Assembly (NCBI GenBank): GCA_965204005.1
Contig: OZ241970.1
Location: 4,805,109-4,869,108, forward strand
Length of the DNA: 64,000 nt
Direction of reading: 5' to 3'
From: Candidatus Versatilivorator sp.
Lineage (GTDB): Bacteria; Acidobacteriota; Terriglobia; Versatilivoradales; Versatilivoraceae
Position numbers and translations under genes: made by a program. The notes under the pieces are model-generated. The model searched no databases. It saw only the letters and a list, made by a program, of their open reading frames with translations, and was not told where the DNA came from. Shown one piece after another: positions 4,878-21,815 of this stretch; position 1 is the stretch's first letter, and every line of letters starts with the position of its first letter.

Positions 4878-7800
4878 ATGAACTCCGCCAATTCCGATAA
4901 CGCCGTCGCCATCGTCGGATACGCCTACCGCATGCCGGGCGGAATCCGCACCGACGACGACTTCTGGCGTCTGCTCAGTCAACGCGAGATTATCCAGGAG
5001 CCGGTCACCGACCGCTACGGCAGGGGCTATCAACCCGTAGGTGGATTCTCCGGCACGGTTCGCTTCGCCAGCCCCTTCGAGGGCCTGATCCGCGACGACG
5101 GGGAGAAGCTGTTCGATCGCGGTCTCTTCGGGCTGTCACAACACGAAATGTTGTCAACCGACCCGCAGCTGAGAATGCTGTTGATGTGCGCCTGGGACAC
5201 CTGCGAGCGGAGCGGCTGGGAACTACACTCGCTACGCAACAGTCCCACCGGAGTGTTTGTCGGCGCGCAAACCCCCCCGGTGGCGAACTGGCGTCCGTTG
5301 CGCGGCGCCGGTCCGTTTGACGTCACCAGCATCAGTCTGGCCATGCTGGCCAATCGCATTTCCTACCACTTCAACTTGATGGGACCGTCAACCACCTATT
5401 GCACGGCTTGTTCCGCCAGCCTCACCGCCTTGAACGCCGCGATGAACGCACTCCAGTGCGGCGATTGCGAGCAAGCCATCGTCGCCTCCGTCAATTACCT
5501 GGGAACGGCCCGGCTCAGCGCTGCCTTTAACGCCCTGGGCGTCATCAGCCCGGACGGCAAGTGCCACTCCTTCGATGCGGAGGCCAACGGCTACATGCGC
5601 TCGGAAGGGGCGTTCGTCTTTGCCATCAAGCCCCTGGAAGCGGCCGAGCGGGACGGGGACCCTATCCACGCCGTGGTGGAGGCAACGGCAGTCAACGCGG
5701 CCGGGGCTGCCGACGGCAGCAGCGGCCTGGCTCAGGGGCGTTACATCACCGCCCCGACCCGTCACGCGCAGGCGGATCTGATGCGCCTGGCCTGCGCTCG
5801 TTCCGGCCGCCAGCCGAGAGAATTCGACTACATAGAGGCCCATGCCACCGGCACCGTGGTGGGCGACCGCATCGAGGGGAACGCCATCACCGAGGCGTTC
5901 GGCGGTTCCGGCCGCGAAGCGCCGCTGCGGATTTCCAGCATCAAGAGCAACGTCGGGCACATGGAAGCCGCCGCGTTCCATTGCGCCCTGCTCAAGGTCG
6001 TGTTGATGATGCAGCGGCGCACCTTCGCGCCGATTTCGAAGAATTACCTGGTGCCGAATCCCGAGATCGATTTCGAGAGCTGCCCCATGCAGGTGCAGAC
6101 GACGTGTGAGCCCTTTCCCGAACCTCCCGTCGTGGTCGGCATCAATTCATTCGGTTTTGGCGGCGCCAACGGGCACTGCGTGGTGCGGGAATACCGCCCC
6201 GCGCAGCCGCGGCCCTGGTCGGTTGGGCTGGCCCCGCAAGCCGGCCACATGATTCCCCTGTCGGCGCGCACTTCCGGCTTGCTGGCGCGCAGCGCCCAGC
6301 AGCTACGCGAAGCCTTGGGCGGGCAGGAGTTGGATCTGTACACCCTGGCAGGCAATCTCAGCCGCCGCCGCACCCACTTCGCCGCCCGTACGTCCTTTGC
6401 GGTGCGCAACCGGCAGGAACTGGCCGAGGCGCTGGACGCCTTCATCCATGACCCCGCGCCGGTGGCCACGGTGGATGAGAGCGAGCGGCGGGTGGCCCTG
6501 GTATTCTCCGGGCAGGGCACTCAGTGGGCCGGTTGCGGCCGTGCGCTTTACGACGCCGACCCCGTTTTCCACCGCGTGATCGATGCGATTGAGGAACACT
6601 GGCGAGAGCACTCGGACAGATCGCTTCGCGATGCCGGTCTTACGGCCTGTCAGGAGGAACTCGACGAAGTCCGGTTGGCCCAGCCGGTCATTTTCATGAT
6701 CCAGTGCGCCCTGGTGGAGTTGCTCAAGACCTGGGGAGTCCATGCGGACTGCGTGGTCGGCCACAGCTCCGGCGAGGTCGCTGCAGCCTACGCCTGCGGG
6801 GCGCTGTCGTTGGCGGACGCCACCCGACTGGTTTTCCACCGCGCCACCCTGCAGCAGCGCGTTGCGGGTTCGGGTCGCATGCTGGCGGTCGGCCTCGACC
6901 GGACGGGCGTGGAGGAAATGCTCGATACCCTGGGCGTTCCCTTCCGGCCGGAGGAAGACCGTCCCGCGCGAGTGGAGATCGCCTGCGAGAATGCGCCGGC
7001 CAACACCGTCATCTGCGGCAGGGAGGCCGCCCTGCGGCCGATCATGGCGGAGTTGGACCGACGCAATCTGCAGAACCAGTTGCTGCCGGGCAATATCGCC
7101 TTCCACTCCACCGCCATGGACCCCATCAAGGACGACGCGCTGTCGGCGCTGTCCTTTCTCAACGGGTGCGCCTTCGACGCCGAGGTGCCGTTCGTTTCCT
7201 CGGTGACCGGCGTCCGCACAGAGCGATTGGACAACCACTACTGGTGGTCGAATATTCGCCGGCCGGTGCGGTTCGCGGCGGCCATGGAAACCATCCGGCG
7301 GGAGTACCGCCCCGACGTGGTGCTGGAAATCGCGCCGCACAGCGCCCTGCAAACCACCATCGCGCAGTGCCTGGAAAGCAGTGTGGCGCCGCCGCCGGCC
7401 TGTATTCCGACACTGATGAGAGACAGCGATGTGTGTCTGGGCTTCAATCGGGCTCTGGGTGCGCTTTTCATGGCCGGCGTCGATCTGGACTTCGCCGCCC
7501 AGTATCCGCGACCGGAGCCGGTCGCCCACCTGCTGCCCGGTCATCCCAGAGAAGAGCAGGCGACGATGGATATCATGTGCGACAACGAGATGTTTGTCCG
7601 GCAGGGGGAGTACTCCCATGGGCCGTTGGTCGGACACAAGGTTCCTGCCGATCACCTGCTCTTCGAGGCGCGGCTTTCCGAGAAGGACTTTCCCTGGCTG
7701 GCGGACCACCGCGTCCACCATGCGGCGATCATGCCGGGGGCCGGTTACATCGAACTCATCCTGGAAGCCCTGGGGGGCGTTCCCGTCTGCTTCGACGTGA

Positions 7801-10800
7801 TAGAGTTCCTCCAGCCCTGCCCCGTTCCCAAGACGTCGGTACGTCTGCAAACGGCCTTGCATCCGGTGGCCGCGGCTCCGGACGAATGGACCTTCACCAT
7901 TTCTTCCCGGCGGTACGACGTCGACGCCAACAGCGAGTTGCACTGCCGCGGGAAGGTGCGCCTGGTGGGCGACGACCACGCGGTGGCGGTGCCGTGCCGG
8001 CTCGCTGACATCGATACGACCCACTTCAAGCCCTCGTTTCTGGCGGACGACCGGAATTTCTACGAGCGCCTGGAGGCGGTCCTCAGCGAGACGTTCCAGT
8101 ACGGTCCCTATTTCAGGACCATCCAGCGCGTATTGGTGGATACGACCTCGAAGGCTTATCTTTTCGATGTAGAGATGGATAAGGGGCTATGGACGACGGG
8201 CCGGGAAGAGGGCTATGTCTCCTGTCCTCCGTTGTTCGACGGGGCGTTGCAGATCTTTCTGTACCACTTGCTGACCGCCGCCGACCTGTTCGCCATCCCC
8301 CAGCGAGCCGAAGGCGTGACATTCTTTCGCCCGCCCTCCGGCCCGCGGATCACCTGCCACGTGACCAAGCCCCGCGACGACTGGATGGATGCCAACGAGC
8401 GGGGACAGTATTCCGTTCGCCGCGGCGAACGGTCCGGCGGCAGTGTCAGTCTCTACGACAGCGCCACCGGAGACCTGGTCGCTCATATCGGCGAATACAC
8501 CTATTTCACCTCCAACCCGCGATGGAACGACCTGCCGGAAAGCAAGCACCGGATATCCTGGCAGCCGAAGTTCATCCCCGACGGCCCATGGCTCGCCGGC
8601 AGACTTCCCGAGGGCGAGATCGAAACCGCCGCCCTGATGGCCGCCCTCGAAAACCGGGAACAGGGCGAGCCCTACGCCTGTCACGCCGTCGAGTTCGCGG
8701 GCTGCCGGGGGCCGGAGCAGACCCTTCTCTGTCAGTGCATCGACCATCTCTCCAACGGCGGCGCACAGACCGAGTACTGGCTGGTTGGCGATACCGAAGA
8801 GAGTATCCGGGCCCACTACGACGCCTTCGGTCAACGCGATGCCGCCTTGCGTTTCGAGCGCCTGGACCCGTCTGCTCAACCGCAACTGGACTCGGGTCTG
8901 CTGCGTCCGGGCAGCGCCGAAATCATTTTTCTGCATGGGGATGGCGAGGCGGTCCGGCCGGAGGAATGGGAATTGGCGCGCCGATTGGCGGTGGCCGGCG
9001 GCCTGGCCCTGGTCTCTCATGGCGAAGGCGACCTCATCCGGCCCGTGGCCGGCTGGACCGTCGTTCGGGCCGGGCGGCGCACGACCCTGCTGCAGGCGCC
9101 GCAGTCCCGCGCGGAACCTCCCGGCCCACCAGAGCCGGTGGGCCCGCGATGGGTGCTCGGGGAGCGGGGAAGCCTGGCGCCGGACTGGGTGGCCCTGCTC
9201 GATGCGCCGGATGCGCATCCGGTCCCCGATGAAGCTCTCGCCGCCAACGCCCTCCATCTGCTCGAAACGTGGCCGCGGGCGGGCGGCCTGCGCGCCGTCG
9301 ACTTCTTCTGTGGCGAGGACCCGCAAGACCCGACGGGGGAAAAGGTGGTGTCGCGCTTCGTCGCCTTTGTCCAGGCTCTGGTTTCATACAGGATGGAGAA
9401 TGCGAACCACTCGTGCCGCTTGACCGTGGCGACGCGCGGAGCCGTGCTCGATGTGGATGATCCGCGCGGGAGTGCCCTGTGGGGGGCGGTTCGCAGCATG
9501 GCCGTGGAAATCGACGAGGAAGCCCGCATCGATTTTCGCCTGGTGGACCTGGGTGATGCCGGCGATCTGGAAACGATGGCCTGGCTGGCTCGGTGCGACT
9601 TGCGCGAGCGCGAACTGGCGGTGCGGGAGAACCGCTTGTGGGCGCCCAGGTGGATCGACATTACGGACCGGTATTCCCGCGTATCCGCCCGGGAGAAGCT
9701 CGCCTACCGGCTCGCTCTGGACAATCCGGGCCAGATCGCCGGTCTCGAGATGAAGACCCGCGAGCTCCCGGCGTTGGGGCCGGACGAAGTGGAGATCGAA
9801 GTGACGGCCGCCGCCCTCAATTTTCGAGACGTCATGGTCACGCTGGGCCTGCTGCCGGCGTTGGCCTATGAACGCTCGGCGCTGGGGCGTGAAGTCGGCA
9901 TGGAGGGAAGCGGGATCGTCCGGCGCGTCGGGTCGGCGGTGCGGGGTTGCCGGGCCGGTGACGAGGTGGCGTTCATACAGGGCGGCTGCATCGCCAATCG
10001 CGTCGTGGTCAGCCAGCATCTCGTTTTCGCCAAGCCGGACCGCCTGAGCATGGAAGAAGCCGCCTCGGTCCTGTCGGTCTATGTCACCGCCTACTATTCC
10101 CTGATTCACCTGGCCCGCCTGCGCAAGGGCCAGCGAGTCCTCATCCACTCGGCCATGGGCGGCGTGGGGCAGGCCGCCATTGCGCTGGCCAGGCACGTGG
10201 GAGCGGAGATTTACGCTACCGCCGGCAGCGAAGACAAGCGGGAGAAGCTGTTGTCGCTGGGCGCCCGAGCGGCTTTCGATTCGCACAGCCACGCCTGGCA
10301 TGACGACCTGATGGCGGCGACCGGAGGCGAGGGCGTCGACGTGGTGCTGAACTCCCTGGCCGGACGCCACGTTGAACTCTGTCTTCAGGCCCTGCGCCCG
10401 GGGGGCTGGCATTGCGAGATCGGCAAGGTCGACATTTACCGGGACAACGACCTCGGCCTGCGCATCTTCCGCAAGAACCTGCGCTTCGCGGCCATCGACG
10501 TGGACCGGCTGATGATCGATGATCCCCATCTATCGCGCGAGCTCTCCCAAGCCTGCCTGGCTTTGCTCGAAGAAGGCGCGCTGCCGCCGCTTCCGGTCAC
10601 CGTCTTTCCGTACAAGGACTACGCCAAGGCCCTTCGCCTGATGACCACCGGCCGCCACCAGGGGAAACTGGTGCTGAAAGCTCCCGAGGCTGCCGGCGAT
10701 GCGGGTTTCACGGTTGCCGATGTGCGGCCGTTTCTCGATCCCGAAGCGACCTACCTGGTCACCGGCGGCCTGGGCGGGTTCGGACTGCGACTGCTGCCTT

Positions 10801-11981
10801 ACCTGGTGGCCGCGGGCGCGCGCCATATCACCCTGATGGACCGCGACCCCGATCGCCGTCGGGACGCCGAGTGGGTCCGTCATTCGAGCGCTTTGGTGTA
10901 CATGGATGAGGATGCCGAATTCGATGTCCTATCGGGCGACGTGGCGGTGGAAGAAGATGTCCGGCGCTGCGTGTCTCAACTCAAAAGGCCGCTCAAGGGT
11001 GTGTTCCACCTCGCCGGCGCGCTGGACGACCGCTTGCTGGACGATCTGTCGGCCGAATCCGTGGCGACGGTTTTCGCACCCAAGGCCCACGGAGCTCTCC
11101 ATCTCCACCGCGCCACCGAGGGTTGCCCACTCGATACCTTTGTCCTGTTTTCCTCGACCGCCTCGGCCCTGGGCAACCCCGGACAGATCAACTACAGCGC
11201 GGCCAACGCATTTCTGGACGGCTTCGCCGCCTGGCGCCGCCGTCAGGGTCTTCCCTGTCTGTCCTACAACATGGCCGCCGTCGCCGACGCCGGCATGGCC
11301 GCGCGCAGTCTCCCCGTGTTGCGCATGATGAGGGCCGCCGGCCTTCCGCCGGTCAGCAGCGACTTCGCCATCGCCAACCTCGACTATGCCCTGCGCGCCA
11401 TGTCCGATCGAGACCACTTGATTACGGCCCTGTTCAAGCACCCGGCATGGACGATTGACTACCCGGACTACATGCGCATCGGGCGCTTGATGAACAATCA
11501 GGACGCCTTCAAGGCCGGCGTGGAGGGCGAGTTGACGCTGGAGAGCGTCGTGGCCCAGATTGCCGCCAAGGTCGCCGAGCTCTGCGGCCACGAGGAGGGC
11601 GACGTGGAGGAGCCGCTGGCCAGTTTCGGGCTCACCTCCATCTCGGTGGCCGAGCTGGGCACGTTCATCCAGACGCAGTTCAACTACCGGGTGAGCGCCT
11701 TGGAGCTGATGACTACCGCCTCGTGTCTGTCGCTGGCACGGGGTATCATCCATGGAAAAGAGAATGTCGAGGACGATGCGGCCGAGGCGGATACGGCCGT
11801 TTCCGAGGATGCCACCCTGGTTGCGCGGCAGCGCGCCCGCCGAGCGCCATCGGTATTCGCCAACGCGATCGAGGACCACTTTCCCCCTCCGCGAGATGGG
11901 TCCGGTACCGCCCCAGAATCCCCTGTCCCGAAACGGCCCCGGGCGGCCGACATGGCAATGGAGGAACAGGGGAAGGCGTAG
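4878..11981 (+). CDS. Type I polyketide synthase, single fully reducing module. Domain order: KS-AT-DH-(pseudo-MT/pseudo-KR spacer)-ER-KR-ACP, no TE.
   Basis: - KS: TACSAS with Cys codon at 5409-5411, plus EAHATGT and KSNVGHMEAAA.
- AT: GHSSGE with Ser codon at 6765-6767; IAFHS at 7095-7109.
- DH: LADHRVHHAAIMPGAGY with His codon at 7707-7709.
- ER: LNFRDV and HSAMGGVGQAAIALA (about 10146).
- KR: YLVTGGLGGFGL (about 10751) and NYSAANAFLD.
- ACP: FGLTSIS with Ser codon at 11637-11639. Confidence 0.93.
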   Translation: MNSANSDNAVAIVGYAYRMPGGIRTDDDFWRLLSQREIIQEPVTDRYGRGYQPVGGFSGTVRFASPFEGLIRDDGEKLFDRGLFGLSQHEMLSTDPQLRMLLMCAWDTCERSGWELHSLRNSPTGVFVGAQTPPVANWRPLRGAGPFDVTSISLAMLANRISYHFNLMGPSTTYCTACSASLTALNAAMNALQCGDCEQAIVASVNYLGTARLSAAFNALGVISPDGKCHSFDAEANGYMRSEGAFVFAIKPLEAAERDGDPIHAVVEATAVNAAGAADGSSGLAQGRYITAPTRHAQADLMRLACARSGRQPREFDYIEAHATGTVVGDRIEGNAITEAFGGSGREAPLRISSIKSNVGHMEAAAFHCALLKVVLMMQRRTFAPISKNYLVPNPEIDFESCPMQVQTTCEPFPEPPVVVGINSFGFGGANGHCVVREYRPAQPRPWSVGLAPQAGHMIPLSARTSGLLARSAQQLREALGGQELDLYTLAGNLSRRRTHFAARTSFAVRNRQELAEALDAFIHDPAPVATVDESERRVALVFSGQGTQWAGCGRALYDADPVFHRVIDAIEEHWREHSDRSLRDAGLTACQEELDEVRLAQPVIFMIQCALVELLKTWGVHADCVVGHSSGEVAAAYACGALSLADATRLVFHRATLQQRVAGSGRMLAVGLDRTGVEEMLDTLGVPFRPEEDRPARVEIACENAPANTVICGREAALRPIMAELDRRNLQNQLLPGNIAFHSTAMDPIKDDALSALSFLNGCAFDAEVPFVSSVTGVRTERLDNHYWWSNIRRPVRFAAAMETIRREYRPDVVLEIAPHSALQTTIAQCLESSVAPPPACIPTLMRDSDVCLGFNRALGALFMAGVDLDFAAQYPRPEPVAHLLPGHPREEQATMDIMCDNEMFVRQGEYSHGPLVGHKVPADHLLFEARLSEKDFPWLADHRVHHAAIMPGAGYIELILEALGGVPVCFDVIEFLQPCPVPKTSVRLQTALHPVAAAPDEWTFTISSRRYDVDANSELHCRGKVRLVGDDHAVAVPCRLADIDTTHFKPSFLADDRNFYERLEAVLSETFQYGPYFRTIQRVLVDTTSKAYLFDVEMDKGLWTTGREEGYVSCPPLFDGALQIFLYHLLTAADLFAIPQRAEGVTFFRPPSGPRITCHVTKPRDDWMDANERGQYSVRRGERSGGSVSLYDSATGDLVAHIGEYTYFTSNPRWNDLPESKHRISWQPKFIPDGPWLAGRLPEGEIETAALMAALENREQGEPYACHAVEFAGCRGPEQTLLCQCIDHLSNGGAQTEYWLVGDTEESIRAHYDAFGQRDAALRFERLDPSAQPQLDSGLLRPGSAEIIFLHGDGEAVRPEEWELARRLAVAGGLALVSHGEGDLIRPVAGWTVVRAGRRTTLLQAPQSRAEPPGPPEPVGPRWVLGERGSLAPDWVALLDAPDAHPVPDEALAANALHLLETWPRAGGLRAVDFFCGEDPQDPTGEKVVSRFVAFVQALVSYRMENANHSCRLTVATRGAVLDVDDPRGSALWGAVRSMAVEIDEEARIDFRLVDLGDAGDLETMAWLARCDLRERELAVRENRLWAPRWIDITDRYSRVSAREKLAYRLALDNPGQIAGLEMKTRELPALGPDEVEIEVTAAALNFRDVMVTLGLLPALAYERSALGREVGMEGSGIVRRVGSAVRGCRAGDEVAFIQGGCIANRVVVSQHLVFAKPDRLSMEEAASVLSVYVTAYYSLIHLARLRKGQRVLIHSAMGGVGQAAIALARHVGAEIYATAGSEDKREKLLSLGARAAFDSHSHAWHDDLMAATGGEGVDVVLNSLAGRHVELCLQALRPGGWHCEIGKVDIYRDNDLGLRIFRKNLRFAAIDVDRLMIDDPHLSRELSQACLALLEEGALPPLPVTVFPYKDYAKALRLMTTGRHQGKLVLKAPEAAGDAGFTVADVRPFLDPEATYLVTGGLGGFGLRLLPYLVAAGARHITLMDRDPDRRRDAEWVRHSSALVYMDEDAEFDVLSGDVAVEEDVRRCVSQLKRPLKGVFHLAGALDDRLLDDLSAESVATVFAPKAHGALHLHRATEGCPLDTFVLFSSTASALGNPGQINYSAANAFLDGFAAWRRRQGLPCLSYNMAAVADAGMAARSLPVLRMMRAAGLPPVSSDFAIANLDYALRAMSDRDHLITALFKHPAWTIDYPDYMRIGRLMNNQDAFKAGVEGELTLESVVAQIAAKVAELCGHEEGDVEEPLASFGLTSISVAELGTFIQTQFNYRVSALELMTTASCLSLARGIIHGKENVEDDAAEADTAVSEDATLVARQRARRAPSVFANAIEDHFPPPRDGSGTAPESPVPKRPRAADMAMEEQGKA

Positions 11982-11983
11982 CC

Positions 11984-13726
11984 ATGCCGAATGCTCTGTT
12001 GGTCTATCCCGAAAATCCCCCTTCCTATTGGGGCGCGAACTTCGCACTGGACATGCTGGGCATCAAGGCAGCCTTCCCGCCTCTGGGTCTGCTCACCGTC
12101 GCCGCCATGTTTCCGCCGGACTACGACCTCCGCGTCGTGGACATGAATGTGACTCCCCTGGGAGAGTCGGACCTGGAGTGGGCGGACCTGGTGTTTACCT
12201 CCAGCATGATCGTACAGCGAGAGTCGCTGCGGACCGTCATCGGGCGGTGCAACCGGGCCGGTGTTCCGGTGGTGGCGGGAGGACCCTATCCCACCTCCTT
12301 TCACGATGAGATCCACGGTGTCGACCACTTCGTGCTGGATGAGGTGGAGGAGACCTTCGGCGATTTCCTGCGCGACCTGGAGAGCGGCACGGCCAATGCC
12401 GTTTATCGCGAGCCGCGGAAACCGGATGTGACCCGGACACCCGTCCCGCGCTTCGACCTCATCGATACGAAGAACTACCACTCGATGTGCGTGCAGTTCT
12501 CCCGGGGCTGCCCGTTCGACTGCGAGTTCTGCGACATCACCAAGCTCTACGGTCGCGTGGCCCGGACCAAGTCGCCGGATCAGATGGTGGAGGAGTTCGA
12601 GGCCTTGTATCGACTGGGCTGGCGTGGCCGCCTCTTCCTGGTTGACGACAACTTCATCGGCAACAAGCGAGCGGCAATGACGCTGCTGTGGGTCATCGCC
12701 GAATGGCAGCAGGCTCGTGGCTATCCCTTCTCCCTGTTCACCGAAGCGAGCATGAACCTGGCCCGAATGGACGAACTGATGGACGTCATGGTTGAAGCCG
12801 GATTCAATTCCGTCTTCGTGGGTATTGAAACGCCCAATCCCAAGGCCTTGCTGAAGATGAAGAAACCGCAGAACGTGGACAAGCGGGACGATAGCTACCT
12901 TCTCAATTCCGTCCGAACCATCCAGCGGAAAGGGATGCAGGTCATGGGAGGGTTCATCCTGGGCCTGGACGGGGACGATGAGAGCGTGTTCGACCTGCAA
13001 ATCGACTTTATCCAGGCAGCCGGCATTCCGATGGCTCTGATCGGGTTGCTGGGCGCCCTGAGGGGCACGGACCTGTATCGGCGCCTGGAGTCGGAAAACC
13101 GGCTGTTGGACGTTTCCATCGGCACGAGCTCCACGGCCCTCAACTTCGTGCCGGAGATGGATCCCGAGGTGTTGATCGAGGGATACCGGCGCGTGACCGC
13201 CAGTGTCTACGACCCGACTCTGGAGAATTACTTCCAGCGTTGCCTGACGTTCTTCGAACACCTGACACCCGTTCCGCACCTGCACAAACCCCGGAACAAG
13301 ATCGCGCTCTACACGGACATTATGGGTCTGCGCCGAAAGCTGTCCAACGAGCAGTTCCCGGCCTTGGTGGAGTTCATTGGCAAGGTCTCCAAGCGCCATC
13401 CCCGCATGCTCCCGGAGGCAATTCGCCTGGCCGCATTGGGTTACCATTTCGAAAAGGCCACCCGCCAGCAGATGACCATCCACGACTTCAAGGCATTTTT
13501 GGAGGCCGAGGCGGAACGTTTCAGGGGAACCTCTTCCGGTTCAGTCAAGGAAGTGGAGGAAATCGGAGCTCGCCGGCAAGAGTTGTTGGTGCGAGCACAG
13601 GCGCGCAACCGATCGATTCCGGACGACTTTCGATATCTTGGAGATGGAATCGAGTCTGCGTTGGAGTCCTTTCGAGTCTCGGTGAATGCTCAGGCGGAAC
13701 ACCTCGCCCGCTCGGCGGCAGTGTAG
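11984..13726 (+). CDS. B12-binding radical SAM protein (class B rSAM, DUF4070-type C-terminus), paralog 1
   Basis: The ATG lies 2 nt after the PKS stop. The N-terminus LLVYPENPPSYWGANFAL...PPLGLLTVAAMFP is the cobalamin-binding-type module. The CPFDCEFC cluster motif is at 12509-12532. The ORF-track start at 11723 runs inside the PKS and is rejected. Confidence 0.88.
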   Translation: MPNALLVYPENPPSYWGANFALDMLGIKAAFPPLGLLTVAAMFPPDYDLRVVDMNVTPLGESDLEWADLVFTSSMIVQRESLRTVIGRCNRAGVPVVAGGPYPTSFHDEIHGVDHFVLDEVEETFGDFLRDLESGTANAVYREPRKPDVTRTPVPRFDLIDTKNYHSMCVQFSRGCPFDCEFCDITKLYGRVARTKSPDQMVEEFEALYRLGWRGRLFLVDDNFIGNKRAAMTLLWVIAEWQQARGYPFSLFTEASMNLARMDELMDVMVEAGFNSVFVGIETPNPKALLKMKKPQNVDKRDDSYLLNSVRTIQRKGMQVMGGFILGLDGDDESVFDLQIDFIQAAGIPMALIGLLGALRGTDLYRRLESENRLLDVSIGTSSTALNFVPEMDPEVLIEGYRRVTASVYDPTLENYFQRCLTFFEHLTPVPHLHKPRNKIALYTDIMGLRRKLSNEQFPALVEFIGKVSKRHPRMLPEAIRLAALGYHFEKATRQQMTIHDFKAFLEAEAERFRGTSSGSVKEVEEIGARRQELLVRAQARNRSIPDDFRYLGDGIESALESFRVSVNAQAEHLARSAAV

Positions 13727-13768
13727 GAAACAGCCCTGTAATTTGCGCGACAGGACAAGAAGGTTGCC

Positions 13769-15541
13769 ATGCCCAATGCGCTTCTGGTGTATCCCCAATA
13801 TCCTCCTTCCTACTGGGGAGTCAATTTCGCGCTGGAGATCTTCCGGATCAAGGCTGCCTTTCCACCCCTGGGTCTGCTCACCGTCGCCGCCATGTTCCCC
13901 CCGAAATACAACCTGCGCGTGGTGGACATGAACGTGGCTCCCCTGGAGGAGGCCGACCTGGAGTGGGCGGACCTGGTCTTTACCTCCACCATGGTAGTCC
14001 AGCGGGAATCCCTGCGGACCGTTACGGAGCGGTGCAACCGGGCCGGCGTCCCGGTGGTGGCCGGAGGGCCCTATCCCACCACCTATCATGGCGAGATCGG
14101 CGGTGTGGACCATTTTGTGCTGGATGAGGTGGAGGAGACCTTTGAAGATTTTCTGCGAGACCTGGAGAACGGCACGGCCGCAGCCATCTACCGCGAGCCG
14201 CGAAAACCGGATGTGACCAGGACACCTGTTCCGCGCTTCGACCTCATCGACACGAAGGCCTACTACTCCATGTCCGTACAGTTCTCCCGCGGATGCCCGT
14301 TCGACTGTGAATTCTGCGACATCACCAAGCTCTACGGCCGGGTGGCCCGGACCAAGTCGCCGGACCAGGTGCTGGACGAATTCGACGTGCTCTATCGCCT
14401 GGGCTGGCGGAGCCATGTCTTTCTGGTTGACGACAACTTCATCGGCAACAAGCGGGAGGCGATGAAGTTGGTGCGTGCCATTGTCGAATGGCAGAAGGCC
14501 CGCGGCTACCCGTTTTCCCTGTTTACCGAAGCCAGCGTGAACCTGGCTGGTATGGATGAATTGATGGACGGCATGATTGAAGCGGGCTTCGATTCCGTGT
14601 TCCTGGGGATCGAAACGCCGAATCCCAAGGCCTTGCGCAAGATGAAGAAACCGCAGAACGTCAGCAAGCGGGAAGAGAATTACCTTTTCAACTGCGTTCG
14701 CAAGATCCAACAGAAGGGGATGCGGGTCGATGGAGGATTCATCCTGGGTCTGGATGACGATGACGAGGGCGCCTTCGATGCCCAGATCGATTTCATTCAG
14801 GAAGTCGGCATTCCCATGGCCATGGTCGGGTTGTTGAACGCTCTGAAAGACACCAATCTCCATGATCGCCTGAAAAGGGAAAACCGGCTATTGGAAGAGC
14901 CTTTCGGAAGCAGCACCGACGGCGTCTTCAACCTGACGAGTGTCAACGTCGCCCTCAACTTCAAGCCGGAGATGAATGTCGAGACATTGATGGAGGGATA
15001 CCGGCGCGTCATCACCACCATCTATGACCCGACTCTCGAGAAATACTTCCTGCGCTGCCTGACGTTGCTTGAACACCTCAGGCCCATTCCGCACCTGCCG
15101 AAGCCCACGAGCAAGAACTCGCTTTTCTTGGCCATCATGTCTGTTCGCCGGCAACTCTCCGCCAAGCAGATCCCGGCCTATACGAAGTTCATCGCCAAAG
15201 TCTCCCGGGCCCATCCCGGCTTGCTGCCGGAGGCGATCCGCCTGGCCGCCCTGGGCTACCACTTTGAAAAGATCACCAGTCAGCAAATTGCCATCGGCGA
15301 CTTCAAGCGGTTTTTGGCGACCGAATTGGGGAGATTCAAGGAAGCGGTTTCGCACGATGTTCGGGATGGGGAAGAAATCGAGAAACGGAGGCAGGCGTTG
15401 TTCACGCAAACCGATGCGCGCCATGCGTCGATACCCGATGAATTCCGCTACCTCGGCGATGGAATCGACGATGCCCTGGAATCGTTCCGGTCCGCCGTGA
15501 GCGATCAGGTAGACCGGTTCACACGATCGCCGGCGATATAA
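13769..15541 (+). CDS. B12-binding radical SAM protein, paralog 2
   Basis: Collinear with paralog 1 and roughly 70-75% identical by eye. CPFDCEFC is at 14294-14317. An RBS-like AAGAAGG lies upstream. Confidence 0.88.
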   Translation: MPNALLVYPQYPPSYWGVNFALEIFRIKAAFPPLGLLTVAAMFPPKYNLRVVDMNVAPLEEADLEWADLVFTSTMVVQRESLRTVTERCNRAGVPVVAGGPYPTTYHGEIGGVDHFVLDEVEETFEDFLRDLENGTAAAIYREPRKPDVTRTPVPRFDLIDTKAYYSMSVQFSRGCPFDCEFCDITKLYGRVARTKSPDQVLDEFDVLYRLGWRSHVFLVDDNFIGNKREAMKLVRAIVEWQKARGYPFSLFTEASVNLAGMDELMDGMIEAGFDSVFLGIETPNPKALRKMKKPQNVSKREENYLFNCVRKIQQKGMRVDGGFILGLDDDDEGAFDAQIDFIQEVGIPMAMVGLLNALKDTNLHDRLKRENRLLEEPFGSSTDGVFNLTSVNVALNFKPEMNVETLMEGYRRVITTIYDPTLEKYFLRCLTLLEHLRPIPHLPKPTSKNSLFLAIMSVRRQLSAKQIPAYTKFIAKVSRAHPGLLPEAIRLAALGYHFEKITSQQIAIGDFKRFLATELGRFKEAVSHDVRDGEEIEKRRQALFTQTDARHASIPDEFRYLGDGIDDALESFRSAVSDQVDRFTRSPAI

Positions 15542-15584
15542 GGCACCATTCCGAGTCGCCGCTGATCGGGGAGGGAAAGAAACC

Positions 15585-18092
15585 ATGACCGAAAGAACGG
15601 CCGCCGACACAGCGGTGGCGCCGCTCAATGGCAACTTGCCGCGGCACTGTCAGAAAGACGTCGATTCCCTGCGTCGATTCGTTCACGAAACCGTCAGCCG
15701 GGAAGCGCCGGCGGCCGCCGTTTCGCCCAGTGATTTCAAGGAGGTATTCCTGACCGGGGCGACCGGATTCATCGGTCGTTTCTTCCTGCGCGACCTCTTG
15801 AGACAGGACCCCGAGCTCCTGGTGCACTGCATCGTCCGGGCCAAGAGTGTCGATCACGGTTTCGGGCGCATACGCGCCGCCTTCGAGCGGGCCGGCATCT
15901 GGGACGAATCCTTCGCGCCGCGCATATGCGTCGCAGTCGGTGACGTCGCCGAGACGCGATTCGGCCTGGGCGAAGCGGATTTCGATGCCCTGTGCCGGCG
16001 GGTCGACGCCGCCTATCATCTTGCGGCCTCCATAGATCTTGTGTCGTCCTATCTCGCCATACGCAAGGTCAATACGTTCAGCCTTCGCAACGTGCTCGAA
16101 TTGTGTTTGCGCCAACGCTTCAAGCACCTGTTCTACGCCTCGACCATGGGTGTGTTCCCCCAGTATTTCTGCAGCTTCGCACATGAATTCAAGAACAGCC
16201 GCATCGACCACCAGATGCAGCCGGACCTCGAAAGCATGAAGAGAATGTTCCCGCTTGGGATGCTCGGCTACCCCTGGAGCAAGCTGACATCCGAGCAGGT
16301 GCTCCTGTTCGCGCAACAGGCCGGTATGCCGCTGGGGATTTTCAGGTTGCCGCAAACCGGCATGTCCAGCTCGGGATATACGCCGGAGCACGATCTCAGC
16401 GTGCGCCTGTTTGCCGCGGTGGTCGATGCCAAGACGTTGCCCCAGGAATTCACCTTTCGATCCAGCAACGAAGCCGTCGATGCGCTGAGCGAAGCCTGTA
16501 CGGCCATTTCCCTGAATCCCCGACGTCGTTTCACGATCTACCATTGCTGCAACCCGCAGTTGGATCATTACGACCTGGAACCGGCCGATTTCGGGCTCTA
16601 TTGGCCCGAGGTTCCCTACGAGGCGTTCAAGCGCGCCTGCCAGGCGCGCGGTGAAAATTCCCCGCTCCATGGCCGCTGGGCCGTGTTCGATCACTTGGGG
16701 AAATACTGGTTCAGCAGGAACAAGCCGAAGGACAGGCTGCCCATTTGCGACCGCGCCATCCGCGAGGACGGCTTGCGCCCGATCAAGTGGATGGGCATGT
16801 TGAGCAAGCTGAGACGCTCGGGGCAGTGGGTCAGGGACCATCGGGAAGACTGGCCGCATCAGATTCCGCAAACCCGCCTGGACTTCGACTGCCTGACCGC
16901 CCGGGCCGAGCGCTACGCCGAGGAGGAGGGCGTCCCCTTCGACTCGGCCTGTCCGGAGTGGATGCGTCAGGGCCTGCAGCAACTGGTCGGAGCTTTGAAT
17001 TCGCCGGATGCGCGGCTGTTGGAGGACAAGGTTGGCGACGTCGTCTTTGAAATGAACCGTTTCTTGCGCAACAACGCACGGTTGGCCCGCGAACGGGGGC
17101 AGCACCCCGAGATCGAACGGGAGCAGACCCTCCGGCCGGTCTTCATCGTCGGCATCAACCGCACCGGCACGACCTACCTGCACCGGCTGATGTCGCGCGA
17201 CAGGCGGTTCTGGACGTTGCGGCTGTACGAGTACGCCGAGCCGGTCCTCTCGACAGAGGAGTACGCCACGGTTGCGGGCACGCCCGACGACCCTCGCCGA
17301 TTGCGAACCGAGGAAGGGCTGCGAGCATCCGACATCTTCAAGGTCCTGGAGGGGGTTCACGATTTCAACGTCGACGAACCGGAAGAGGAATTCCCGATTT
17401 TCAGGATGGCATTCTCGGCATGGGTCTCTACCTCTCGATTCCATGTGCCGGAATATGGCCGGTGGCTGGACGCGAACGGCTGCGGAGAGGCTTACGCCTT
17501 CTTTCGCCGCACCCTGCAGCATTTCGCCTGGCAGCGGCGTCAGCGTGAGCCCGGGCGCCAGGGCCAGTGGTTGCTCAAGATGCCCTTTCACCTCATGGAA
17601 ATGGAAACCCTCATCCAGACCTGCCCGGACGCCCTGTTCATCCAGACCCACCGCGAGCCCTCGCAGTTCATGGGATCCTGGAACAGCCTGGTGGAGCGGG
17701 TACGCTCCCTTTGCAGCGAGCCCCTGCCGCCGCATGAGTTCGGCCGCGAGCAGTTGTCCTTCATGAGCGGCATGGTGGGCAGGGCCGTTCAGTTCCGGGA
17801 AAGCCGTCCCGAACTGGAGCACCGCTGGATGGACGTGAACTACGTCGATCTGGTCGAGGATCCCATGGCGGTCGTCCAGGCCATCTATGAGCGGTTCAAC
17901 TGGCCGCTCAATCAAGGGGCGATCAACGCCATGGAGGACTGGCTGTTCCGGCAGGCGGAGCGCCGCCGCGGCGAGCCGCGGCATCGCTACGACCTGGGGG
18001 ACTACGGCCTGACGCCAGAGGACGTCAACGCCGCCTTTGCGGGTTATCGCGACTTTCTGACTCGCAGGGCCATTCGGAAACCCGGCCCGTAG
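15585..18092 (+). CDS. Fusion protein: N-terminal thioester/acyl reductase (NAD_binding_4-like SDR) plus C-terminal PAPS-type sulfotransferase
   Basis: Reductase half: FLTGATGFIGRFFLRDLL (about 15752) and YPWSK (YxxxK). Sulfotransferase half: PVFIVGINRTGTTYLHRLM (5'-PSB-like loop, about 17158) and IQTHREPSQFMGS (3'-PB-like). GGAGG RBS upstream. Confidence 0.8.
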   Translation: MTERTAADTAVAPLNGNLPRHCQKDVDSLRRFVHETVSREAPAAAVSPSDFKEVFLTGATGFIGRFFLRDLLRQDPELLVHCIVRAKSVDHGFGRIRAAFERAGIWDESFAPRICVAVGDVAETRFGLGEADFDALCRRVDAAYHLAASIDLVSSYLAIRKVNTFSLRNVLELCLRQRFKHLFYASTMGVFPQYFCSFAHEFKNSRIDHQMQPDLESMKRMFPLGMLGYPWSKLTSEQVLLFAQQAGMPLGIFRLPQTGMSSSGYTPEHDLSVRLFAAVVDAKTLPQEFTFRSSNEAVDALSEACTAISLNPRRRFTIYHCCNPQLDHYDLEPADFGLYWPEVPYEAFKRACQARGENSPLHGRWAVFDHLGKYWFSRNKPKDRLPICDRAIREDGLRPIKWMGMLSKLRRSGQWVRDHREDWPHQIPQTRLDFDCLTARAERYAEEEGVPFDSACPEWMRQGLQQLVGALNSPDARLLEDKVGDVVFEMNRFLRNNARLARERGQHPEIEREQTLRPVFIVGINRTGTTYLHRLMSRDRRFWTLRLYEYAEPVLSTEEYATVAGTPDDPRRLRTEEGLRASDIFKVLEGVHDFNVDEPEEEFPIFRMAFSAWVSTSRFHVPEYGRWLDANGCGEAYAFFRRTLQHFAWQRRQREPGRQGQWLLKMPFHLMEMETLIQTCPDALFIQTHREPSQFMGSWNSLVERVRSLCSEPLPPHEFGREQLSFMSGMVGRAVQFRESRPELEHRWMDVNYVDLVEDPMAVVQAIYERFNWPLNQGAINAMEDWLFRQAERRRGEPRHRYDLGDYGLTPEDVNAAFAGYRDFLTRRAIRKPGP

Positions 18093-18321
18093 TTCTGCCG
18101 AGCCCCAATGGCTGGCGGGGTCGCCGGGTGAAAGAAGGGAACCTCTGGCTTGTGTCGATAGATCAGTCTGGCGGGCTGCAGGTTGCGCCGGGCAAGTCCC
18201 CGCCGGCCATTCGGGCCGAACCGCAAGCAGGATCCCCGGACAGCCTGGTGCAAGCCGGGCCACGGAATTCCACTCGGATCTTCATCCTGGCGGACGATCC
18301 CCCCCGTGGCCGCTATGGCCG

Positions 18322-18972
18322 TCATTTTTCCGATTTTGCGACGACCTTTTCGAGCACTGCTTCGGCGGATTTGAACATCTCCGTCAGAAGCTGCTTGCGC
18401 CGGGTCTTCAGGCGCTCAATATACATCCACAGGGCATTGGTGATGCCGGCAACGACCGCCTCCCGTGTGTTGAGCGAAAGGGTACGGTCGTTCTGGTACT
18501 CGTATTTCTCAATGGTGAAGTTGGCGATGTGCTGGATGTTCTCTCCGATGACATCGAAATCGACAGAGTCACGCATCGGAATGGTAGCGGATGCTTCTGC
18601 TGCTCCCTCACCCCCGCCGACGTCGGCCTTCCCGGTGATGGCTTCGATGGCCGCACTCTGCGAATCGTAAATCGACATGATTCCATGAAAGCCGCTGACG
18701 GTGACAATTTCGCGGATCGAATCGGAGAGGTTGCAGATACCGAAGGCCTTGCCTTCCGGGTTGAATTTCTTGGCGATGATCAGGCAGACGCGAAGGCCTG
18801 CGCTGCTGATGTAGCCCAATTGCCCGAAGTCCAGGATCATGGCCCGTTCATCGGGATCGATTCCGGCTTCCAAGACATTCTGGACTTCAATGTAGTTGTT
18901 CCCGTCGATACGACCGATCGGCGCAGCGATCAGAATGCCTTCTCTACGGCTCCACTTGACTTGGGCTGGCAT
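18322..18972 (-). CDS. STAS-domain protein (anti-sigma-antagonist fold) with an uncharacterised C-terminal extension of about 100 aa
   Basis: IDGNNYIEVQNVLEAGI...MILDFGQLGYISSAGLRVCLIIAKK...FGICNLSDSIREIVTVSGF is a typical STAS/SpoIIAA pattern. An AAGGAG RBS precedes the ATG. Confidence 0.7.
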   Translation of the reverse strand: MPAQVKWSRREGILIAAPIGRIDGNNYIEVQNVLEAGIDPDERAMILDFGQLGYISSAGLRVCLIIAKKFNPEGKAFGICNLSDSIREIVTVSGFHGIMSIYDSQSAAIEAITGKADVGGGEGAAEASATIPMRDSVDFDVIGENIQHIANFTIEKYEYQNDRTLSLNTREAVVAGITNALWMYIERLKTRRKQLLTEMFKSAEAVLEKVVAKSEK

Positions 18973-19156
18973 GGCGTTACTCCTTTCAGGTCAGACATCC
19001 GGAAAAAACCTGTCCATCATAGCATGATACGTGGCGGATGCGGTCGTATTGGGTTGCCGTACGGTGTGTTTCTGTAGACACCGCGAAGTTTGTTCACGGA
19101 ATTGCAACAGCCCGAGGTCGCCACTTGAGCCGGATTGAAAAACGTGAGCGAGGACG

Positions 19157-20785
19157 ATGCCATTGAACCCGGACTCGAATCTCCGGACGAGAGCCGCCAC
19201 CGATCCATCGGCGGCGGGAGGCTCCCTGCAACTTTCCGGAAGACAGCTTTTGCTGGCCATGACCGGCGTGATGACGGCCATGTTTCTGGCAGCCGTGAGT
19301 CAGATCAATATCGCCACCGCAATGCCTCGCATCCTGGCCGACCTGGGCGGGTTCGACCGCTACGCCTGGGCTTCGACCGCATACCTGGTTGCCTCCACCA
19401 TTGCGATTCCCATCGCGGGCAGATTGGCCGATCTGTTCGGACGCAGGCTGTTCTTCATCCTGGGCCTGGCGATCTTCATGATCGGCTCGATCGCGGCGGG
19501 TTTGAGCCAGTCCATGAACCAGCTCATCGCTTCCCGCGCCATCATGGGCATCGGTGGCGGCACTCTCATGACCAACAGTATCGCCGCCGTGGCAGACCTG
19601 TTCCCAGCGGGAGAACGGGGCAGGTACATGGGGTTGATCGGTCTTGTCTTCGGCCTGTCTTCGGTGATCGGGCCGCCGGTGGCCGGTTTGATCACCGACA
19701 CCTTGTCCTGGAACTGGGTCTTTCTGATGAATGTTCCGGCCGGAATCCCGGTGTTGCTGTTGATCGTTCGGGCTTTCCCCGGGATCGCTCCCGCTGGCGG
19801 GAAGCGCAGGCTGGACACCCCGGGAATGGCCACCCTGACACTGGCGGTGGCCTGCCTGATGATCGCGCTCTCCCTCGGAGGCGTTCACTACCGGTGGAGT
19901 TCGCTTCAGGTCAGCGGACTCCTGGGTTTCGGATTGGCAATGGCCGTGATTTTCCTGGTGATCGAGTCCAGGTCCGACTCTCCCATCATGCCCCTGGAAA
20001 TTTACAGAAACCGGGCGGTGGCGGTTTCCGTGATGGTCACCCTGCTGACCGGGTTCGGATTGCACAGCACGGCGCTCTTGATCCTGCTCTACTTCCAGGG
20101 GGTGGCGGGCTCAACCGCGACCGGCAGCGGCGGCCTGCTGACCCCCATGATGCTTGCTATGGTATTCGGGGCCATCGTGTCCGGGAGACGGCTCTCCGGA
20201 ATCGGGGGAAACTACCGGAGGCAGGCCCTGATTTCCTCGGGAGCCATGGCAGTGGGCATCTTTCTCCTCTCCACCATGAACGAGAATACGAGTCTTGCCC
20301 GGGCGGTGGCCTACGTTTCGCTTGCGGGGCTGGGACTGGGCGGCGCCATGTCCACCTCCAACCTGGCCGTCCAGAACTCGGTCCCCCTCCGGCTGGTTGG
20401 CAGCGCCACCGCCGCGATTCAGTTCTCCAGGTTGTTCAGCGGCACGCTGGGTCTGGCCGTGTTGGGGGTCGTGTTGGCGGTGAGCTTCTCATCCAGGTTG
20501 GAGGAAACCCTCCCGGAATCCGTCAGTGCCGGGCTTGCCCGAGGGCAGTTCGAGGCCGTCAGGCAGAACCCGCGGGCGCTTGTCGATCCCTCGGCGATCG
20601 AGGCGCTGAGAACCGGCTTCGAGGAGAGGGGGCTGGACGGCACTCAGATGGCGGACAAGTTGCTCGGCGCACTCAGGTCGGCGCTGGTCGGGGGATTGGG
20701 AGATGCCTTCACGCTGAGCGCGCTGGTGGTGGCGCTTTCGTTCCTCGCCGCACTGTTCCTGAGAGTCGAGAAGCGGAGAGGCTGA
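19157..20785 (+). CDS. MFS transporter, DHA2 (EmrB/QacA-like, 14-TMS type) drug:H+ antiporter family
   Basis: GRLADLFGRRLFFILGLAIFMIGSIAAG and FPAGERGRYMGL are motifs typical of DHA2 exporters. The 542-aa protein is hydrophobic throughout. Confidence 0.85.
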   Translation: MPLNPDSNLRTRAATDPSAAGGSLQLSGRQLLLAMTGVMTAMFLAAVSQINIATAMPRILADLGGFDRYAWASTAYLVASTIAIPIAGRLADLFGRRLFFILGLAIFMIGSIAAGLSQSMNQLIASRAIMGIGGGTLMTNSIAAVADLFPAGERGRYMGLIGLVFGLSSVIGPPVAGLITDTLSWNWVFLMNVPAGIPVLLLIVRAFPGIAPAGGKRRLDTPGMATLTLAVACLMIALSLGGVHYRWSSLQVSGLLGFGLAMAVIFLVIESRSDSPIMPLEIYRNRAVAVSVMVTLLTGFGLHSTALLILLYFQGVAGSTATGSGGLLTPMMLAMVFGAIVSGRRLSGIGGNYRRQALISSGAMAVGIFLLSTMNENTSLARAVAYVSLAGLGLGGAMSTSNLAVQNSVPLRLVGSATAAIQFSRLFSGTLGLAVLGVVLAVSFSSRLEETLPESVSAGLARGQFEAVRQNPRALVDPSAIEALRTGFEERGLDGTQMADKLLGALRSALVGGLGDAFTLSALVVALSFLAALFLRVEKRRG

Positions 20786-20820
20786 CGGCCCTTTTCTCCG
20801 CAGGGAACGGGGGATAAGGA

Positions 20821-20847
20821 TGCGGGCGGGACGCCCGCGCTCCCGGG
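20821..20847. repeat. Short copy of the GCGGGC-loop-GCCCGC hairpin motif, also present in the 40754 and 41059 repeats
   Basis: tgcgggcgggacgcccgcgctcccggg lies between the convergent MFS and ankyrin genes. Confidence 0.6.
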
Positions 20848-20934
20848 GGGCGACGCGCGGCCACGCCGGGTCGCTTCATGACCAACTCGAATGCCTGCAG
20901 GCGAGCGTCCAGCCTGTCATCGCCCCCGAACTCC

Positions 20935-21627
20935 TCAGTTGGACGACTCGAACTGCGCCACGTGAAGGCGGATATAGGTCCTGGTTCCCTTGAGCGCCTC
21001 GTTGGCCTGGGCCAGGTCCCAGGGCGTCTTGCCCTCGGCATTCCGAGCATTGGCGTCGGCTCCGGCCTCCAGCAGCAGGTCGATCACGGCTGGAACCCTG
21101 CCGCTTGCAGCGGACTGATGCAGGGGTGTGCGGCCGGCATTATCCCGGGCCTCCAGGTTCGCCCCGGCCTCGATCAGCACCCTCGTCACTGCCGGGTTCG
21201 GGTTTGCCCGGGCGGCATCGTGCAGTGGCGTGTTGCCGGACTTGTTGCGCACGTTCGGATCGGCTCCGGCGGCAAGTAGCGCCTCGATGACCGCCGGATT
21301 CCGGTTGCCCCAGGCCGCCAATACCAGCGGGGAATTGCCGTTCCTGCTCCGGGCATCCGGTTTTGCTCCAGCCGCCAGCAGCGTTTTGACCACCGCAGGA
21401 TTCCTGCTGTTCCAGGCCGCGAAGTGCAGAGGCGTGCGGCCGTTTTCCGTCTGGGCTCCGACGTCGGCGCCGGCATCCAGACAGGAGGTTACCTCCTCGA
21501 CGGTTGCTTTCAGGAAATACTCCCGCGTGTTCCACTGTTCGCAGGCCGGGTCCGGCTGAGCTGCAAGAGTGGAAGCAAGCAGCAACAGCGCAACCCGGCT
21601 ACCGCCAGAAATGAGCTTGAATGTCAT
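20935..21627 (-). CDS. Secreted ankyrin-repeat protein
   Basis: Start moved to the ATG at 21627, which has an AGGAGG RBS 8 nt upstream. The signal-like N-terminus is MTFKLISGGSRVALLLLASTLAAQ. It has 5-6 ANK repeats (GRTPLHFAAW..., GNSPLVLAAW..., GNTPLHDAAR..., GRTPLHQSAA..., GKTPWDLA). Confidence 0.8.
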   Translation of the reverse strand: MTFKLISGGSRVALLLLASTLAAQPDPACEQWNTREYFLKATVEEVTSCLDAGADVGAQTENGRTPLHFAAWNSRNPAVVKTLLAAGAKPDARSRNGNSPLVLAAWGNRNPAVIEALLAAGADPNVRNKSGNTPLHDAARANPNPAVTRVLIEAGANLEARDNAGRTPLHQSAASGRVPAVIDLLLEAGADANARNAEGKTPWDLAQANEALKGTRTYIRLHVAQFESSN

Positions 21628-21815
21628 GGCATTACCCCTCCTGTAAAATACTGCTGGTAAGGAAGTTGATCCGTTCCAACCGGGAAAGCCAGCGCTCACG
21701 CAGTCTACCACCAAACCGCCGGAGTTTGAAGGCATCCGGCAATCCTTGGAGAAATTTGGGGCGTGATGGATCTTAGTGGGTGTACGGCTTAATCGCGATG
21801 CGGTAAACTACGGGC

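Follow-up and report, generated by a model that had tools for sequence, protein, structure and literature searches.

What does a bacterial protein make when it carries a reductase and a sulfotransferase in one chain, and on which substrate does it act? This question is raised by an open reading frame (ORF) of 835 amino acids (aa) in a 64,000-nucleotide (nt) stretch of contig OZ241970.1 (assembly GCA_965204005.1, positions 4,805,109 to 4,869,108; hereafter the window) from Candidatus Versatilivorator sp. of the phylum Acidobacteriota. We identify the protein, with very high confidence, as an orthologue of SwfB, which serves the swf cluster as a separate off-loading enzyme, in a host-associated acidobacterial relative of Ca. 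Versatilivorator. The cluster was named for 'sponge symbiont widespread FAS', where FAS stands for fatty acid synthase (Della Sala et al. 2013, Environ Microbiol Rep 5:809; PMC3908369). It is one of the few biosynthetic loci common to many unrelated phyla of sponge symbionts, and the nature of its product is a long-standing question.

Domains and identity of SwfB

The ORF begins with ATG and lies exactly where a preliminary description, made from the letters alone, had placed it. Its parts are as follows, with R for the reductase and ST for the sulfotransferase, which uses 3'-phosphoadenosine 5'-phosphosulfate (PAPS).

15585..18092, + strand: swfB, R-ST didomain protein, 835 aa, last gene of the swf cluster
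15744..16691, + strand: thioester-reductase domain (extended short-chain dehydrogenase/reductase, SDR), aa 54-369; TIGR01746, PF07993 and fold match
15753-15776, 16140-16145 and 16269-16283, + strand: R-domain sites TGATGFIG, S186/T187 and Y229xxxK233, respectively
16692..17057, + strand: inter-domain helical region, aa 370-491; structure model and invariant W/D/P columns
17058..18044, + strand: PAPS sulfotransferase domain (Sulfotransfer_3, Stf1/Stf9 type), aa 492-820; PF13469, profile and fold matches
17151-17174, 17577-17591 and 17649-17678, + strand: ST sites, namely the 5'-phosphosulfate-binding (5'-PSB) loop GINRTGTT, K665...H669 and the 3'-phosphate-binding (3'-PB) motif HREPSQFMGS, respectively

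The preliminary description had divided the protein into an SDR-type reductase half and a sulfotransferase half on the basis of four motifs, all of which were located in the ORF: TGATGFIG (aa 57-64), YPWSK (aa 229-233), GINRTGTTYL (aa 523-532) and THREPSQFMGS (aa 688-698). In a Pfam scan of SwfB, NAD_binding_4 (PF07993) covered aa 56-291 (E=5e-45, 154 bits against a cut-off of 20) and Sulfotransfer_3 (PF13469) covered aa 518-775 (E=3e-31, 109.7 bits against a cut-off of 27). Because every homology falls on the + strand, an opposite-strand ORF of 914 aa (15519..18263) was rejected as a shadow ORF, which is typical of DNA with 62 % GC.

The structure prediction and fold comparison of each half that had been suggested as a check recovered the folds of R domains and of Stf1/Stf9, and both assignments were thus borne out. 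In a Foldseek comparison with the PDB, the top matches of an AlphaFold2 model built from a 43-sequence alignment (pLDDT 78.7, pTM 0.77) formed two non-overlapping sets, one for each half of SwfB. The N-terminal half matched the R domain of MxaA (4u7w/4w4t, TM-score 0.74-0.75) and the TR domain of CpkC (8v1x, 0.78-0.79), whereas the C-terminal half matched the mycobacterial sulfotransferases Stf1 (2zq5, 0.82) and Stf9 (2z6v, 0.79) in alignments spanning 392-420 columns. Sequence profiles agreed with the fold search for both halves, the R half again matching MxaA and CpkC and the ST half matching 2zq5 (E=1e-51) and 2z6v (E=4e-38). The part between the two Pfam domains (aa 370-517) is a conserved helical stretch, not a floppy linker, and the model places most of it with confidence in the N-terminal portion of the Stf1-like domain, with pLDDT 74-93 for residues 391-520 and low confidence limited to a linker at about aa 380-390.

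With the R domains of MxaA (from a myxalamid hybrid of polyketide synthase, PKS, and nonribosomal peptide synthetase), CpkC and the carboxylic acid reductases, that of SwfB has in common an extended SDR fold, a TGxxGxxG loop and the S/T-Y-K triad, and it is predicted to accept carrier-protein thioesters as they do. Unlike these, it stands at the N-terminus of a free-standing protein, would act in trans on the acyl carrier protein (ACP) of SwfA and is fused to an ST domain. In the ST half, each residue of three motifs has its counterpart in the Stf proteins, namely of RTGTT in the 5'-PSB loop, of KxPxH and of HRxP...S in the 3'-PB site: in the profile alignment with Stf1, GINRTGTT falls on GLVRTGTT, KMPFHL on KNPSHL and QTHREP...GS on QTHRPV...AS. 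We regard H669 as the putative catalytic base of the domain. The Stf proteins are stand-alone enzymes of about 380-410 aa, whereas the ST of SwfB is a C-terminal fusion to a reductase, and its acceptor is presumably a simple fatty alcohol.

The fusion is neither an assembly or annotation artefact nor a decaying pseudogene. Contigs from four independent public runs (one sponge metagenome, one coral metagenome and two runs of a host organism given in code) span the junction (16201-17183, 16544-17173 and 16547-17162) with zero gaps, and the region 16900-17100, where a stop or frameshift had been envisaged as a sign of misassembly, was crossed in all four without indels. A word-indexed search of 5.8 billion proteins gave 532 matches at E<=1e-10, and the best 120 of them, from many independent assemblies, were all of about 835 aa (coverage 92-100 %, identity 63-97 %); in all, more than 120 protein clusters have this full-length architecture. 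Homologues thus do not occur only as separate genes, another possibility raised beforehand, since these best 120 share the full-length R-ST. A few related loci keep swfB fragments only (L069, L072-L075), which is what decay would leave; in the window, however, the ORF is intact and its two-domain model is confident, and the alignment of homologues has a mean column identity of 73 % with invariant catalytic residues. The artefact or pseudogene reading is therefore refuted, and we assign it a practically negligible probability.

The gene is also widespread. Among GTDB species genomes, 75 loci were detected, and the same architecture of about 835 aa was common to more than 60 genomes. An exact look-up of the window protein in the assembly index gave no record. 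According to the labels of the metagenome-assembled genomes (MAGs), the loci belong to Acidobacteriota, Nitrospirota, Latescibacterota, Gemmatimonadota, Binatia, Tectimicrobiota, Gamma- and Alphaproteobacteria, Opitutales, Rhodothermales and Syntrophobacterales. The closest genomes come from a sponge-type MAG series, and the gene is also present in coral and marine metagenomes. Sponge-metagenome runs contain about 50 % of the swfB 31-mers, and the best-covering runs are from a host organism that is given in code.

Published swf clusters consist of swfA, with the domains ketosynthase (KS), acyltransferase (AT), dehydratase (DH), enoylreductase (ER), ketoreductase (KR) and ACP in 2349-2361 aa; swfB, with 'R + ST domains' in 832-839 aa; and swfC, a B12 radical S-adenosylmethionine (SAM) protein of 585 aa (PMC3908369). 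The 835-aa protein has the same N-terminal R and C-terminal ST layout as published SwfB, including the poribacterial POR_0550. Fosmid SwfB and POR_0550 are 58-59 % identical (PMC3908369), and the homologues of the window protein fall within this range. The likeness extends to a SwfA partner of about 2350 aa with the same signatures, a B12 radical-SAM SwfC, neighbouring STAS and small-protein genes, and an origin from marine host-associated symbionts. The window differs from the published clusters in its gene order, A-C-C-B with a tandem swfC instead of A-B-C, A-B or the poribacterial A-C-B, in one SwfA motif (DPQLR, not DPQ[I/V]R), in a fused STAS and hairpin gene that lies downstream on the opposite strand, and in its acidobacterial host.

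The preliminary description had called the didomain unusual, a claim for which we find no support. The reading of SwfB as R plus ST, the contrast with the ST-thioesterase (ST-TE) of curacin and a possibly methylated alkyl sulphate as product were all proposed in 2013, when the only other contiguous R-ST noted was the C-terminus of a coccidian type I FAS (PMC3908369). Both the R-ST architecture and the hypothesis attached to it are already known, since they have been in print from that year and public data contain many members of the gene family. Beyond mentions in 2013, 2014, 2022 and 2023, we found no later functional assignment of swf or of R-ST enzymology in the literature, our coverage of which is incomplete, so that the absence is no proof.

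Coupling of R-ST to the SwfA carrier protein

In the window, swfB is preceded by three genes of the same strand in the order swfA-swfC-swfC-swfB, with intergenic gaps of 2, 42 and 43 nt.

4878..11981, + strand: swfA, mono-modular fully reducing type I PKS/FAS, 2367 aa; Pfam domains
11984..13726, + strand: swfC copy 1, B12-binding radical SAM protein with DUF4070, 580 aa; Pfam B12-binding, Radical_SAM and DUF4070
13769..15541, + strand: swfC copy 2, B12-binding radical SAM protein with DUF4070, 590 aa, tandem paralogue; Pfam and NCBIfam

SwfA contains KS (aa 8-386), AT (542-869), DH (916-1174), ER (1634-1933), KR (1957-2136) and ACP (2227-2286) domains, and the KS triad is present (TACSA, HATGT, NVGH). 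The signatures published for SwfA are HATGT instead of HGTGT, DPQ[I/V]R instead of DPQQR, IAFH, GHSSGE, QCALVEL and FSGQGTQW, the last two being swf-specific PCR primer sites (PMC3908369). Five of them, HATGT, IAFH, GHSSGE, QCALVEL (aa 609) and FSGQGTQW (aa 543), were exact in the window protein; in the remaining one, DPQLR, a hydrophobic residue replaces the second Q, but it is L where the published motif has I or V. The ACP of SwfA can be phosphopantetheinylated (PMC3908369). No PAPS-supply or phosphopantetheinyl transferase genes were found among the 18 scanned ORFs flanking the cluster up to about 49 kb, the remaining downstream ORFs lying outside the scan. A promoter and terminator scan of 4100-19200 was uninformative, as both site types were near shuffle expectation (3 against 2.3 +/- 1.7 and 16 against 11.3 +/- 3.4).

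Both SwfC copies carry the cluster motif CPFDCEFC (aa 176 in copy 2). The true start of copy 1 is M88 of the mechanical ORF 11723-13726, 3 nt after the swfA stop, and from there on the two copies are 71 % identical. A metatranscriptome contig joins 12115 to 13907 and skips 1791 nt, a join that a relative with one swfC, or recombination between the swfC paralogues, would be expected to give.

Gene orders were counted over the 72 loci with swfB. The order A-C-B was found in 44 (and in 3 more that are partial), A-B in 9, A-C-C-B in 4 and A-B-C in 2, so that swfA-(swfC)-swfB is kept in about 60 of the 72 loci and in at least 10 phyla. The tandem order is limited to the four closest loci (L001, L003, L009 and L031). 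The occurrence of A-B loci without swfC indicates that SwfC is optional and that SwfA-SwfB is the core; in these nine natural A-B clusters, R-ST therefore works on the SwfA product as such.

The same coupling is found within single chains. When 1.84 billion representatives were searched exhaustively with HMMER, about 27 representative clusters had one match spanning both halves. A Pfam scan identified P0122 (3179 aa) as KS-AT-DH-ER-KR-ACP-R-ST in one chain, colinear with the concatenated SwfA and SwfB of the window (50 % identity over 3198 columns), and P0133 (2932 aa) as having the same order, its carrier domain undetected at the threshold used. P0126 (3183 aa), placed by match position and length, likewise ends in R-ST and is of matching size. 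Giant PKSs of 4.5-6.7 thousand aa that end in R-ST were identified in Rhytidocystis (P0139), Gregarina (P0141) and Chromera velia (P0169). These gene fusions, as Rosetta-stone evidence, show that R-ST is an off-loading unit for an ACP-bound chain. The type I PKS/FAS megasynthases of apicomplexans and chromerids (Coccidia; oocyst-wall PKS1, PMC3760245) share with SwfB the contiguous R-ST at 29-34 % identity and the conserved catalytic residues. Their R-ST differs from SwfB in being a covalent part of multi-modular eukaryotic synthases of 4-7 thousand aa.

Residue conservation was scored in 23 aligned R-ST regions with 27-55 % identity, including the PKS-fused bacterial and eukaryotic examples. 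In the R half, the NAD(P) loop was kept in 20-22 of the 23, S186 in all, T187 in 20, Y229 in 21 and K233 in 22. In the ST half, R526, K665 and H669 were invariant, and T529, T530, R690 and S698 were kept in 21-22. This conservation indicates purifying selection on both catalytic centres, and both halves of the enzyme are almost certainly functional, as judged from the aligned residues. The exceptions are instructive: P0129 has S and H in place of the reductase Tyr and Lys, and Chromera P0169 has an ST with degenerate PAPS-binding motifs. Comparison with these natural 'half-dead' variants, used as controls, could help to tell which half is essential.

Proposed route to an alkyl sulfate and its alternatives

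In the route that we propose, SwfA, with its IAFH-type AT, would iterate with malonyl units until its ACP carries a saturated acyl chain. Unactivated carbons of this chain would probably be methylated, in an optional step, by one or two SwfC proteins acting as class-B (B12) radical-SAM enzymes; this step is proposed because SwfA has no C-methyltransferase domain and SwfC shows weak similarity to class-B radical SAM enzymes. The R domain of SwfB would take the acyl-S-ACP thioester and, in the manner of MxaA, reduce it with NAD(P)H first to the aldehyde and then to the primary alcohol, and the attached Stf1-type domain would then move sulfate from PAPS to that hydroxyl. The expected product is a primary, possibly methyl-branched, alkyl sulfate. 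Within this scheme the identity of the domains, their conservation and the coupling to the ACP are shown, whereas we infer the four-electron reduction, the C1 hydroxyl as acceptor, the chain length, the methylation and the channelling between the halves, and we consider the full route from acyl-ACP through the alcohol to the alkyl sulfate moderately probable.

The preliminary description had arrived at the same chemistry. It stands as the most reasonable reading, backed by the folds, the conserved residues and the gene context, although its novelty is lost to the publication of 2013. The contrast drawn there with the ST-TE didomains of curacin and the olefin synthases was also supported, as neither SwfB nor SwfA contains a thioesterase and the ST follows a reductase; membership in the curacin-like ST-TE type was rejected for the lack of a TE domain in both proteins. 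CurM (curacin A) and the olefin synthases resemble SwfB in having a PAPS sulfotransferase integrated in PKS chain termination. Their ST-TE acts on a beta-hydroxyacyl-ACP, whereas the likely acceptor of SwfB, because its ST follows the reductase, is the C1 alcohol after release, and no decarboxylative elimination is expected.

Several observations weigh against the route to an alkyl sulfate. No swf product has been detected so far; expression of a whole swf cluster in Escherichia coli BAP1 gave no new compound (PMC3908369), a failure that limits of B12/radical-SAM supply or of extraction may explain, and papers of 2022 and 2023 describe swf as widespread and taxonomy-independent and still call its function unknown. 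The TIGR01746 thioester-reductase match (aa 54-369) reaches 180.8 bits, which is under the curated NCBIfam cut-off of 213.35. For the methylase role, NCBIfam gives SwfC copy 2 only sub-threshold similarity to the class-B radical-SAM methylases PhpK, HpnR and HpnJ; its PDB matches, 9ccb and CysS, are also weak. Two observations that speak for the route have limits of their own. Contigs of one coral metatranscriptome match the cluster, one of 358 nt over 16803-17160 with one mismatch, but they are weak evidence of transcription because DNA carry-over is possible. In about 10 Nitrospirales loci, the next gene 3' of swfB on the same strand encodes a bifunctional CysN/CysC for PAPS synthesis (sulfate adenylyltransferase subunit 1 and adenosine 5'-phosphosulfate kinase; NF004035, 843.6 bits against a cut-off of 715; e.g., L004:12668-14470, + strand). 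This adjacency is consistent with a local PAPS supply, yet only supportive, since a single lineage shows it and chance may account for it. A last point against the route is the depth of reduction, because the closest solved R domains include both the alcohol-forming MxaA and the aldehyde-forming TR of CpkC, and we know of no reliable sequence signature that separates two-electron from four-electron reduction.

The last point leads to a different chemistry, in which the R domain performs a two-electron reduction and releases an aldehyde, or acts non-reductively, and the ST sulfates another hydroxyl, such as a beta or mid-chain OH left by a skipped DH or ER step, to give a sulfated hydroxy-aldehyde or hydroxy-acid derivative. 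Besides the end of the CpkC reaction at the aldehyde in a near structural relative, such a product would fit the varied acceptors taken by Stf-type sulfotransferases and the optional use of reducing domains by iterative PKSs (noted in PMC3908369). Against this, R and ST are strictly and covalently paired over huge evolutionary distances, which is most simply explained if R makes the acceptor hydroxyl; moreover, SwfA has a complete DH-ER-KR set, and no conserved aldehyde-processing enzyme occurs in the swf neighbourhood. We therefore regard aldehyde release or a non-reductive role as unlikely.

It is also conceivable that the alkyl sulfate is formed as proposed and serves only as a cryptic activation. 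It would then be a short-lived electrophile that loses its sulfate by displacement or elimination to give an alkene, an ether or an alkyl transfer, possibly by SwfC or by an enzyme of the host or of another symbiont, and the final metabolite would be sulfate-free. Sulfate as a leaving group has precedent in CurM and the olefin synthases (cited in PMC3908369), and its loss would account for the lack of reports of widespread alkyl sulfates in sponges (PMC3908369), although standard lipid work-ups would miss such compounds anyway (PMC3908369). In the 72 loci, however, neither a thioesterase nor an alkyltransferase nor any other downstream enzyme is conserved, STAS and hairpin genes alone being recurrent, and A-B clusters consist of the PKS and R-ST alone. 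We hence give this possibility a low probability. In an equally speculative variant, the primary alkyl sulfate made by swf is an electrophile that acts as an activated alkyl donor; other parts of the holobiont would use it in alkyl transfer, ether formation or elimination, and the STAS and hairpin proteins would handle or regulate it.

If, as in the preferred route, swf does make alkyl sulfates, the holobiont would commonly contain an anionic lipid or surfactant that chemical analysis has overlooked, and the same R-ST off-loading logic would also apply to the megasynthases of apicomplexans and chromerids. Whether methyl-branched primary alkyl sulfates form such an overlooked class across holobionts is, in our estimate, evenly balanced. 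The present analysis adds confirmation and pointers that should ease the biochemistry, namely the natural A-B clusters (e.g., of the types in L030 or L017), the single-chain A-B fusions and the cysNC linkage; the tandem swfC duplication, the STAS and hairpin neighbour and the mosaic exchange of the cluster are minor additions.

Neighbouring genes and exchange of cluster modules

The genes downstream of swfB include a conserved neighbour of the cluster and several genes of less certain relation to it, among them one encoding a major facilitator superfamily (MFS) transporter.

18322..18972, - strand: fusion of STAS and helical hairpin, conserved swf neighbour, 216 aa; Pfam STAS, model and fold search
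19157..20785, + strand: MFS transporter, 542 aa; Pfam MFS_1 and synteny counts
20935-21735, - strand: ankyrin-repeat protein, 266 aa, just past the MFS gene
29363-30757, + strand: IS110-family transposase, about 11 kb downstream of swfB

The fusion protein combines a SpoIIAA-type STAS module (aa 1-112, nt 18637-18972) with a helical-hairpin module of about 85 aa (aa 131-215, nt 18328-18582). The hairpin module had no sequence match in Pfam or the PDB, and the fold search gave STAS matches only. In other phyla, STAS and hairpin are encoded by two adjacent genes, or the hairpin gene occurs alone, usually directly upstream of swfA (e.g., L004:93-335, L027:498-1170, L005:280-949). The hairpin module adjoins swf in 43 of the 72 loci and STAS in 31. 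Their counterparts in the tables of 2013, ORF18 (115 aa, anti-anti-sigma) and ORF19/POR_0546 (92 aa), were not counted in the cluster (PMC3908369); they look like unrecognised swf accessory genes. A STAS or hairpin gene is sometimes also found beside the swfB fragments of L069, L072, L073, L074 and L075, which are without an intact cluster and may be decayed or deleted swf loci. The MFS transporter is a possible exporter and no more than a candidate member of the system, since it is a swf neighbour only in the acidobacterial lineage (11 loci).

The mosaic comparison of L057, L028 and L031 with window positions 4878-21735 showed that flanks and swf genes differ in their similarity. The flanks of L057 (STAS 91 %, MFS 90 % and ankyrin 87 % identity) resemble the window more than the L001 flanks do, while its swf genes reach only 76 % (SwfA), 73 % (SwfC) and 67 % (SwfB). 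In L031, the SwfC copies are 89-90 % identical to those of the window, against 72 % for SwfA and 67 % for SwfB. These identities suggest recombinational exchange of swf modules among related symbionts. In addition, L001, the closest complete genome (Ca. Versatilivorator sp.), has about 5 kb inserted between swfB and the STAS-fusion gene (L001:12497-17762) in comparison with the window, L003 and L009.

The ankyrin-repeat protein and the IS110 transposase are typical of sponge-symbiont genomes, and the ankyrin and NHL/fn3/TIG proteins of the window are symbiont hallmarks. A reprolysin-type metalloprotease domain is split over two overlapping ORFs in different frames (22795-23847 and 23642-27427, + strand), the second of which runs into NHL, fn3 and TIG repeats. 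Together they probably encode one large eukaryote-like surface protein with a frameshift, which may be genuine or a sequencing error.

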